From the IMG/VR virus record IMGVR_UViG_2737471821_000004: a stretch of 27,699 nucleotides of DNA. One strand, 5' to 3'. Every line of letters starts with the position of its first letter. Positions within the stretch are counted from its first letter, which is position 1. This stretch comes from a virus. Its lineage: Duplodnaviria; Heunggongvirae; Uroviricota; Caudoviricetes. The position numbers and the translations under genes were made by a program. Shown in pieces: positions 23,755-25,573 of this stretch. The notes below the pieces were generated by a model that worked only from the letters and a program-made list of their open reading frames with translations, searched no databases and was not told the origin of the DNA.

Positions 23755-24341
23755 TGACTTTTAAAATGAGTGAAACCGATCAAACAGTTACTGTTTATAA
23801 CCTGCGTTCCGACACGAATGAATTTATTGGTTCAGGTGATGCTTTTATTCCTGCGCATACTGGACTGCCAGCCAACTGCACAACAATAAAACCACCGGTA
23901 ATCAAAGTGGGGTTTGTGGCAATTTTTGATTCAGAGAAGCAAAGATGGATTTCCCGTGAGGATCATCGTGGTGAGGTGGTGTTTGATACAGAAAACGGTA
24001 ATGAACTGGTGATCACCGAGCCAGGTGTTTACCCGGAAGGGACAACCACGTTAGCACCGGCTAATGCCTGGCAAAAATGGAATGGTAAGGCGTGGGTGGA
24101 TGATGCGGAGGCCATGCGAATTGTATTAGTCAGCGAGGCAGACGCCGAAAAGAAAAGCCTGCTTAAACAGGCCAATGACGCCATTGCCACATTGCAGGAT
24201 GCCGTTGATTTAGACATGGCAACCGAAGAAGAAGCACTGCTGCTTACCGCATGGAAAAAATACCGCGTTTTACTGAATCGTATTCAACCGGAAGATGCGC
24301 CGGAAATTGTGTGGCCGGAGGTGCCTGGAAATGTGGCGTGA
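23754..24341 (+). CDS. Tail fibre assembly protein (Tfa/gpG-like chaperone)
   Basis: TAATG coupling to the fibre gene; 195 aa; C-terminal LLLTAWKKYRVLLNRIQPEDAPEIVWPEVP is the characteristic Tfa C-terminal motif. Confidence 0.8.
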   Translation: MTFKMSETDQTVTVYNLRSDTNEFIGSGDAFIPAHTGLPANCTTIKPPVIKVGFVAIFDSEKQRWISREDHRGEVVFDTENGNELVITEPGVYPEGTTTLAPANAWQKWNGKAWVDDAEAMRIVLVSEADAEKKSLLKQANDAIATLQDAVDLDMATEEEALLLTAWKKYRVLLNRIQPEDAPEIVWPEVPGNVA

Positions 24342-25056
24342 AGCACGTCTGGCCTTTACGGATTCTGTTGCTGCTCTGAACTGTTCGATCGTCCCTGCGC
24401 ATCCGTGGATTTATGGGCTGGGACAGCAGACAGCGAATGGGGCATATCTCAGTCCGGTTAATGCCGTTCGCTATCTTGCTGAACGCCTGGCCGGAACTGG
24501 AGGGAATGCGGACGTGGTGATTATGATGGTCACCGGACAGACGCAGGAAAACTTTATGGTCAGCCTGAATAACCTGGTCGGGATATTCCCCGCCCCGGCA
24601 TTCACGCAGGTCAAACGGCTGGCGCAATCTGCCGCAGCTCTGGCTATTGAAAAGATGCAGATCCCTGCGAAATCCGGCGCTGCGTTACCTGCGTCCATTC
24701 CGCTGTCTGTACCAACCAGCAGGGTTGCTTTATCTGCTGCGGCAATCAGCCAGGCACAAAAGGCGGCGGGTGCCGGGTTTGATATCGAAGGGCTGAAAAA
24801 ACAGCTGGGCGAGTTCACGCAGCTGCGTGACCAGCTTATCAGTGACGTGGTCAGCGGCCTGAATGATTTACAGGGAAAAAGTGCCAGAGCGTGGGTTTTT
24901 ACTGCCAGCGGAGACACCGGCACCACGTTACTGGAACTGATGAAGGACATTCCGCAGCAGTCTGCCGTTTACACCGCAGCCATGATGCTGGTTGGTGATA
25001 ATCTTGATGGAATAAAGGGAATGATTCATGACTTCGATCCCGACACTGGCGCTTAA
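24331..25056 (+). CDS. Hypothetical protein (241 aa), unknown function, after the tail fibre assembly gene
   Basis: Track ORF 24295..25056 trimmed to ATG 24331 (MWREARLAF), overlapping the tfa stop; Ala/Gly/Leu-rich; no family recognised. Confidence 0.5.
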   Translation: MWREARLAFTDSVAALNCSIVPAHPWIYGLGQQTANGAYLSPVNAVRYLAERLAGTGGNADVVIMMVTGQTQENFMVSLNNLVGIFPAPAFTQVKRLAQSAAALAIEKMQIPAKSGAALPASIPLSVPTSRVALSAAAISQAQKAAGAGFDIEGLKKQLGEFTQLRDQLISDVVSGLNDLQGKSARAWVFTASGDTGTTLLELMKDIPQQSAVYTAAMMLVGDNLDGIKGMIHDFDPDTGA

Positions 25057-25573
25057 TGGCGAGGCCATCCAGCTGAAAAACATGCGGGTGACCGTTTCAC
25101 AGCAGTTTCAGGATAAAGATCAGTCCGGCCAGACCAGCGCCACAACAAAATCAGAGCAGGGAGCAAAGGGAAAGGAACTGCGGATCAGCGGTGAAATACC
25201 TTTTAAACAGCCTGAAATACTGAAGCGTATTTTTGAGCTGGCCAGTGCTACCGATGCCAGTGGTAATCGTCAGAAGTACCGCGTGGCGCATGAAGTTGCC
25301 CGTGCAGTTAATTTTCGTGAAGCAACGTTCAGCGGAATGCTGGATGCGCCCCAGCAGGACGGGAAAATGTCCTGGCTGGTGACATTCACACTGGCGGAAC
25401 ATATCAGCGTGCAGGAAAAGCGAGAGGCCAGGGCAACAGGTAAGACGACCGCAAAAAAACAGACTGCCGGTAGTGCGGGACAGTCCGGTGGCCAGTCTGC
25501 CGGAGAGGATGAAGAAAAACTGACGTGGTTTGAACGCAAGGTGCTGAAGCCCGTCAATGATGCTTTGGGTTAA
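25028..25573 (+). CDS. Hypothetical protein (181 aa) with a low-complexity Gly/Ser/Gln/Lys-rich linker
   Basis: ATG 25028 overlapping the upstream gene by 29 nt; contains KTTAKKQTAGSAGQSGGQSAGEDEEK; could be a gpU-like tail protein by position (before the D-like gene) but unverified. Confidence 0.45.
   Translation: MTSIPTLALNGEAIQLKNMRVTVSQQFQDKDQSGQTSATTKSEQGAKGKELRISGEIPFKQPEILKRIFELASATDASGNRQKYRVAHEVARAVNFREATFSGMLDAPQQDGKMSWLVTFTLAEHISVQEKREARATGKTTAKKQTAGSAGQSGGQSAGEDEEKLTWFERKVLKPVNDALG

Follow-up and report, generated by a model that had tools for sequence, protein, structure and literature searches.

The terminal genes of the late operon

The stretch of DNA studied here, IMG/VR virus record IMGVR_UViG_2737471821_000004, is 27,699 nucleotides (nt) long and will be called the window; it is a complete prophage of the HP1/ESSI-2 type (Peduoviridae, Quadragintavirus), extending over about 27 kb from the integrase to a terminator. 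Our subject is a pair of open reading frames (ORFs) in its late operon, ORF-A and ORF-B, which a preliminary description made from the letters alone had located, as proteins of 241 and 181 amino acids (aa), between a fibre assembly gene and a large downstream gene, here ORF-C. Both genes are indeed there, and the upstream neighbour is a tail fibre assembly gene (Tfa), as recognised by its Pfam family. The layout, with isoelectric points (pI), is as follows:

24331-25056, + strand: ORF-A, 241 aa, ATG start, pI 5.4
25028-25573, + strand: ORF-B, 181 aa, ATG start, pI 9.3
25576-27276, + strand: ORF-C, 566 aa, starting 2 nt past the ORF-B stop
23754-24341, + strand: tail fibre assembly gene (Tfa), 195 aa, Pfam Caudo_TAP, E 1.8e-35
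27288-27316, + strand: intrinsic terminator of the late operon, a 7-pair stem with 5 G-C pairs, then a T-run

The same description had called the two genes tightly coupled to their neighbours, co-oriented and similar in GC content to the tail operon, and the details agree with it. The ATG of ORF-A falls within Tfa, 11 nt from the 3' end of that gene (whose stop codon occupies 24339-24341), with a GGAGG at 24317-24321, 9 nt upstream; ORF-A and ORF-B overlap by 29 nt on the same strand, and the GC content across 24001-25500 is 0.53-0.56, as compared with 0.46-0.57 in the remaining tail operon, hence within its range. No credible promoter or terminator was found when the interval from Tfa to ORF-C was scanned, the sole convincing terminator in the scanned region being the strong one just past ORF-C, at 27288-27306. 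A programmed frameshift between ORF-A and ORF-B was also considered and ruled out: the overlap ranges from 4 to 35 nt among relatives, as in translational coupling.

The early and regulatory genes of the window comprise an integrase, CI, a CII-like gene, a Dam methylase, gpA and Ogr/Delta; the head genes and the R and S tail-completion genes are of the P2 type, and the tail module is of the HP1 type, with a DUF2586 sheath, an HP1-Orf24 tube, a tail assembly chaperone, a tape measure, DUF2590, J, an I-like protein, the fibre and Tfa. The major tube protein is encoded at 16087-16542. From Tfa through ORF-C the segment shares about 95% identity with Escherichia phage ESSI2_ev015 (Peduoviridae; Quadragintavirus), and several E. 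coli chromosomes carry the ORF-A/ORF-B segment at 100% identity; in 5,426 complete genomes it was matched 45 times, always as a single copy per genome.

Each of the three terminal genes has a homologue in HP1 and in Vibrio phage K139: ORF-A corresponds to HP1 orf33 and K139 orf37 (25-28% identity), ORF-B to orf34 and orf38 (40-45%) and ORF-C to orf35 and orf39 (35-41%). The order tape measure-DUF2590-J-I-fibre-Tfa-orf33-orf34-orf35 is kept in all seven HP1-like genomes in which it was examined (HP1, K139, phiO18P, phi3, YenM324, ESSI-2 and ESSI2_ev015), phages whose hosts belong to Haemophilus, Vibrio, Aeromonas, Pseudomonas and the Enterobacteriaceae. Like the HP1-type terminal triad, the triad of the window is placed between the fibre assembly gene and the operon terminator, and the K139 record carries an annotated terminator at the equivalent position, after orf39. 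Our literature searches returned no paper on the function of HP1 orf33/orf34, K139 orf37/orf38, DUF2590 or the Pfam family PF25759 discussed below.

ORF-A and ORF-B are under purifying selection. Measured against three relatives, the ratio of nonsynonymous to synonymous substitution rates (dN/dS) is 0.10-0.26 for ORF-A and 0.06-0.09 for ORF-B, with 0.05-0.17 for J, I and ORF-C. When eight phages were compared, ORF-B and ORF-C diverged in step with J, I and DUF2590; ORF-A diverged faster, roughly as fast as the tape measure, and yet it was always present. The same difference is seen with ESSI-2, to which ORF-A is 61% identical as opposed to 74-83% for ORF-B, ORF-C, J and I.

The tube-fold protein ORF-B and its neighbour ORF-C

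The preliminary description recognised no motif in either protein. For ORF-B this is wrong: it scores 183.4 bits, for a cut-off of 27 (E 4e-54), against Pfam PF25759 (“Bacteriophage HP1 ORF34 baseplate complex protein”), its residues 6-181 aligning to positions 2-176 of the 180 in the profile; the recent annotation by the Prokaryotic Genome Annotation Pipeline (PGAP) already reads “baseplate complex protein”. NCBIfam returned nothing for ORF-A or ORF-B, and a search of the sequences of solved structures (PDB) with ORF-B, alone and as a profile, gave no meaningful match. An AlphaFold2 (AF2) model built from 67 sequences has a core with a predicted local distance difference test score (pLDDT) of about 90 over aa 7-25 and 49-125, and in this model the N-terminal 125 residues adopt a tail-tube fold with a long hairpin, the loop at aa 28-45 and the tether at aa 129-161 being disordered. 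Three parts of the protein are of interest here:

25109-25168, + strand: ORF-B aa 28-47, long loop of the tube fold, pLDDT below 50 in the monomer model
25433-25510, + strand: ORF-B aa ~136-161, ATGKTTAKKQTAGSAGQSGGQSAGED, Gly/Ser/Gln/Lys-rich flexible tether, pLDDT 32-44
25514-25570, + strand: ORF-B aa 163-181, EKLTWFERKVLKPVNDALG, C-terminal helix, predicted helix 167-179

The loop at aa 28-47 is the best-conserved block of the family, with D31, S33, G34, S37, T39, G45 and K47 invariant between the window protein and six phages (ESSI-2, YenM324, phiO18P, phi3, HP1 and K139). The tether, which is the low-complexity linker that had been noticed from the start and is real at aa ~136-161, is by contrast the most variable part, with the highest column entropy in the family alignment. 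In the C-terminal helix, 67 enterobacterial sequences all have W167, F168, E169, K174, P175, N177 and L180, and the helix is kept in phiO18P and phi3. This pattern, in which an invariant hairpin and a kept helix are separated by a variable tether, fits a ring-forming protein with a tethered docking helix.

The best structural matches of the model are tube initiators and ripcords, that is, hub-proximal ring proteins, with the following scores:

Pa193 ripcord-1 gp38: 10.0
Pam3 tube initiator gp17: 9.5
Pa193 ripcord-2 gp39: 9.2
Milano gp25: 8.9
phiCD508 LysM needle protein: 8.9
Pyocin R2 PA0626 (ripcord): 8.4
Mu gp43: 7.9
Major tube proteins and Hcp: 6.4-8.5

Since the major tube protein and the R/S tail-completion proteins are already present elsewhere in the window, a second tube-fold protein encoded beside the spike gene would be the initiator, and on its modelled fold ORF-B is most likely the tube initiator ring protein. 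The “gpU-like” guess of the preliminary description is thereby half right. The modelled tube fold makes ORF-B gpU-like in fold and in probable role, but it stands outside the gpU sequence family: there was no Phage_P2_GpU Pfam match at E < 0.1, hhalign gave a probability of 0.2% with P2 gpU, and phmmer found nothing.

Public records give homologues of ORF-B other names. The orf34 homologues of YenM324, PV94, SMHB1, Vibrio 1.202.O and Pseudoalteromonas PY3 are labelled “adenine glycosylase”, which, given the tube fold predicted by the model, is almost certainly a propagated mis-annotation; that of Pseudomonas phage phi3 (NC_030940) is labelled “nucleoid DNA-binding protein”. In the same phi3 genome the orf33 homologue has no RefSeq annotation (~6080-6998 and 7537-8220 are noted as affected) and is detected by the family hidden Markov model (E 2e-57), and the orf35 homologue likewise seems to lack annotation over its N-terminal third.

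ORF-C, downstream, belongs to PHROG 2258, “baseplate protein” (E 5e-279). Its residues 412-507 match the C-terminal beta-helix of T4 gp5 (E 2e-10), and residues ~258-499 give a weak match to the VgrG OB domain plus helix; in a family-profile search, profile positions 311-464 align to VgrG1 residues 414-570, and the OB match to Phage_base_V is just below threshold (22.9 bits for a cut-off of 23.8). Near the C-terminus, H533-x-H535 (27172-27180) is invariant in all six aligned homologues and, as a motif, resembles the metal-binding spike apex of other contractile systems. The first ~290 residues, for which our searches returned no matches, sit where VgrG keeps its gp27-like hub module, so that their hub nature is putative and assigned by position only. 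Taken as a whole, ORF-C is most likely a VgrG-like hub-plus-spike protein. The “gpD-like hub” label it had received earlier has to be given up, as there is no sequence similarity to P2 gpD (no Pfam match; BLASTP E 0.65 over 10 residues) and the protein has gp5/VgrG-type OB and beta-helix parts instead; BLASTP found no similarity to P2 gpV either.

ORF-A and a candidate central baseplate

Profile and structure-based searches, which the preliminary description had suggested and which gave ORF-B its Pfam family and its tube fold, placed ORF-A only in PHROG 1677, a family of unknown function (E 2.2e-75; residues 15-227 to positions 57-285 of the 287 in the profile). In this protein the earlier remark on the lack of a recognisable motif stands: ORF-A has no Pfam or NCBIfam match, no LysM (beta-alpha-alpha-beta) domain by profile and no membrane segment, hhalign of its profile against P2 gpX and gpU gave probabilities of 0.2% or below, and neither ORF-A alone nor a diverse profile of 84 ORF-A sequences found a meaningful match among the sequences of solved structures. 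The AF2 model, built from 68 sequences, is poor (pLDDT 57.7) and consists of an alpha/beta core broken by long helices, with a disordered Pro/Ala-rich tip. With this low-confidence model, Foldseek returned nothing at E < 0.1 in BFVD, and no solved baseplate component matched its fold; we count these null fold searches as no assignment, and not as evidence of a new fold.

The ORF-A family is small (276 clusters among 1.84 billion representative proteins) and comes in two size classes, the long one having an insertion of ~54 aa after residue 11. The best-conserved segments are aa 21-50 (HPW..G..G.YLSP.NA..LA), 81-90 and 211-230, and the central region is variable and indel-prone. Rare members of 482-527 aa (P0375, P0377) carry large Ala/Gly-rich helical or repeat insertions, so the central or N-terminal region of the fold tolerates big expansions; a Rosetta-stone check of the long members turned up, apart from helical or repeat insertions, a single deletion chimera, and did not yield any informative fusion partner. 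The ORF-A homologue of YenM324 is labelled “structural protein”, a label that we could not trace to data and did not use. ORF-A is thus uncharacterised, but it is clearly a core late protein. The earlier verdict that the role of the two proteins is open was therefore fair for ORF-A, and no longer applies to ORF-B with its assignment as a tube-fold initiator.

Simple contractile baseplates are made of a spike, a hub, a tube initiator, a sheath initiator, a wedge of the J2-I type and a filler between hub and wedge. The last of these can be a LysM protein or domain, or else a small BH1a protein, and the two reportedly do not coexist. We looked for these parts in the window. Pfam scanning of the late-operon ORFs showed no P2 V-, X-, U- or D-type family above the curated cut-off and no LysM, and the P2 V, X, U and D proteins, run by phmmer against every window ORF, found nothing. 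As these searches gave no P2 V/X/U/D-type match, we assigned the spike, hub, initiator and glue functions to ORF-A, ORF-B and ORF-C. One has to keep in mind that phmmer with eleven P2 tail proteins against all window ORFs gave nothing significant, not even for J, although the window J matches Pfam Baseplate_J; having missed J, the method is too weak to exclude a hidden gpX.

With ORF-B as the initiator and ORF-C as the hub-spike, no conserved late protein other than ORF-A still lacks a role, and by elimination we infer that it could be the hub-to-wedge adaptor. We rank this reading first for ORF-A, tentatively and with less confidence than an even balance would call for. A bolder version of it, which we consider doubtful, would have ORF-A as a virion protein of an undescribed fold that replaces both the LysM glue and the BH1a filler and is recruited through the C-terminal helix of ORF-B; if true, ORF-A would be a third solution to a hub-to-wedge step thought to be covered by two.

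The alternative that survives best keeps ORF-B as the initiator and takes ORF-A out of the particle, as a non-virion assembly factor, that is, a chaperone or catalyst for the hub/spike or the baseplate in the manner of T4 gp51. Its faster evolution than that of the structural baseplate proteins (61% as opposed to 74-83% identity to ESSI-2), the highest dN/dS value (0.26), the variable and indel-prone centre and the lack of a fold match to solved baseplate components would all suit such a factor; but the tape measure, which is a virion protein, diverges as fast, the missing fold match stems from a low-confidence model, and the baseplate inventory would otherwise be left with no hub-to-wedge connector. 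We regard an assembly factor as unlikely.

A good deal less probable is that ORF-A belongs with the fibre genes, where it would serve as an adaptor of the fibre or as a second chaperone for it. ORF-A adjoins Tfa and is translationally coupled to it by the 11-nt overlap; the exchangeable host-range cassette, however, consists of the C-terminus of the fibre and of Tfa, its last gene, and its boundary falls at the Tfa/ORF-A junction. In Salmonella phage S.Kent 1-2-1, where the fibre tip and Tfa have been swapped and ORF-A has not, DNA homology to the window picks up again at ~24312, about 19 nt before the ORF-A start; at the protein level Tfa aligns over 34% of its length with 46% identity, as compared with 82-94% over the full length for ORF-A, ORF-B and ORF-C (82% for ORF-A). 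This recombination boundary makes ORF-A part of the conserved downstream block, outside the fibre module, and HP1, K139 and phiO18P likewise keep ORF-A next to fibres and Tfa proteins that are unrelated. As for the cassette itself, the 5' part of Tfa (23705-23881) has 93% DNA identity to TfaE of the unrelated Erwinia phage RF1, a likeness that points to a recent exchange.

We find it very improbable that ORF-A and ORF-B build a 3+3 heterohexameric ring between tube and hub, as Pa193 gp38 and gp39 do, even if the best structural match of ORF-B is Pa193 ripcord-1, the ring partner of ripcord-2, and if the two genes are adjacent and overlapping and their products of opposite charge (pI 5.4 and 9.3).

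Hardly credible at all is one of the two readings first put forward for this locus, accessory cargo (a moron or anti-phage function in ORF-A and/or ORF-B) in a slot like Z/fun of P2: the P2 region past gene G does hold fun(Z) and ORF-A has no annotated function, but both genes occupy the same position in all seven HP1-like genomes, evolve under purifying selection, follow the strand and GC of the operon, overlap their neighbours with no promoter or terminator of their own found, and have no match to a PADLOC defence model, while ORF-B has a virion-type fold. Moreover, fun(Z) of P2 is encoded on the opposite strand and comes after the terminator of the V operon, and the tail order here is that of HP1 and not that of P2, so the analogy with the P2 cargo slot does not transfer.

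We come back to the baseplate. ORF-A, ORF-B and ORF-C, the last three late-operon genes of this HP1/ESSI-2-type temperate myophage, probably encode its central baseplate jointly. In the arrangement that we propose, six copies of ORF-B would form a ring atop a trimeric ORF-C hub, a stoichiometry that we infer, with the hairpin at aa 28-47 building the inner beta-barrel of the ring, and this ring would nucleate the tube, with the major tube protein polymerising around the tape measure. The Gly/Ser/Gln tether may project the C-terminal helix of ORF-B outwards and let it dock on a neighbouring baseplate component, as the helix of P2 gpU does on the wedge. ORF-A would lie between the hub/initiator and the J/I wedges, formed by J and the I-like protein, and DUF2590, by its size and position only, would presumably be the sheath initiator. 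Of all this, the orthology, the conserved gene order, the selection and the fold of ORF-B are shown, while the number of copies in the ring, the docking of the helix and the entire placement of ORF-A are proposals.

Several points weigh against this arrangement. K139 orf38 (9663-10133, 157 aa) does not have the C-terminal helix that the enterobacterial, Aeromonas and Pseudomonas homologues keep, so the helix cannot be universally required. ORF-A, with its 241 aa, is far larger than gpX (67 aa), and BH1a proteins have been described only as small. Position is the sole ground for the hub assignment of the ORF-C N-terminus, and our literature searches found no virion proteomics for any member of the ORF-A or ORF-B family.

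Comparison with known systems

Two further ORFs of the prophage are worth recording. Between the tail assembly chaperone gene (17667-17924) and the tape measure sits a DUF6890 ORF (17921-18115), which may be the counterpart of the E' frameshift extension of P2. Just past the late-operon terminator, a 110-aa ORF at 27367-27699 (+ strand) carries a signal-peptide-like segment at its N-terminus, MKNFIILAVGAAVSFNVFAAE, and matched nothing in Pfam or PADLOC; in E. coli 23CRST047 the next gene, on the opposite strand, encodes a serine acetyltransferase, and the host mntR comes after it. If a moron slot is sought in this prophage, its end at 27367-27699 looks like one, rather than the Tfa/orf33 junction.

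The finding is an ordinary one and has no bearing on any long-standing open question. Its main value is a corrected annotation for genes that public records call “hypothetical”, “adenine glycosylase”, “nucleoid DNA-binding protein” or nothing, and without it HP1-type phages could be misread as having a cargo gene here. No baseplate of an HP1-type tail has been solved; once orf34 is read as the initiator and orf35 as the hub-spike, orf33 is the one component for which the known baseplate structures offer no counterpart, which makes it a defined target for cryo-electron microscopy or proteomics.

In P2, six gpU copies sit on the gpD trimer and the C-terminal helix of gpU contacts the wedge triplex, and according to a P2 preprint the ripcord of the pyocin corresponds to the tube initiator of P2. 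ORF-B differs from both gpU and pyocin R2 PA0626 by its long low-complexity tether and by the position of its gene, which does not follow that of the tape measure. The pyocin-type ripcord domain of PA0626 is absent from ORF-B. PA0626 is the gpU homologue of the pyocin.

The ring of Pa193 gp38 and gp39 adapts a six-fold tube to a trimeric hub. Sequence identity between ORF-B and these two proteins, or Pam3 gp17, is 10-13%, and Pa193 has two paralogues and an additional baseplate-tube ring, whereas a single tube-fold protein was identified in the window besides the major tube protein. P2 gpX and the BH1a proteins of Pam3, XM1 and E217 are multicopy fillers between the hub/initiator and the wedges, which is the role proposed, by analogy, for ORF-A; as ORF-A shows neither a LysM signal nor a fold match, this putative resemblance is positional and functional only.

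Within the HP1-like phages, the Vibrio/Aeromonas-type long form of ORF-A has the N-terminal insertion of ~54 aa and the enterobacterial form does not. With HP1 and K139 themselves, the window shares an orthologous trio of genes that, in identical order, closes the late operon.

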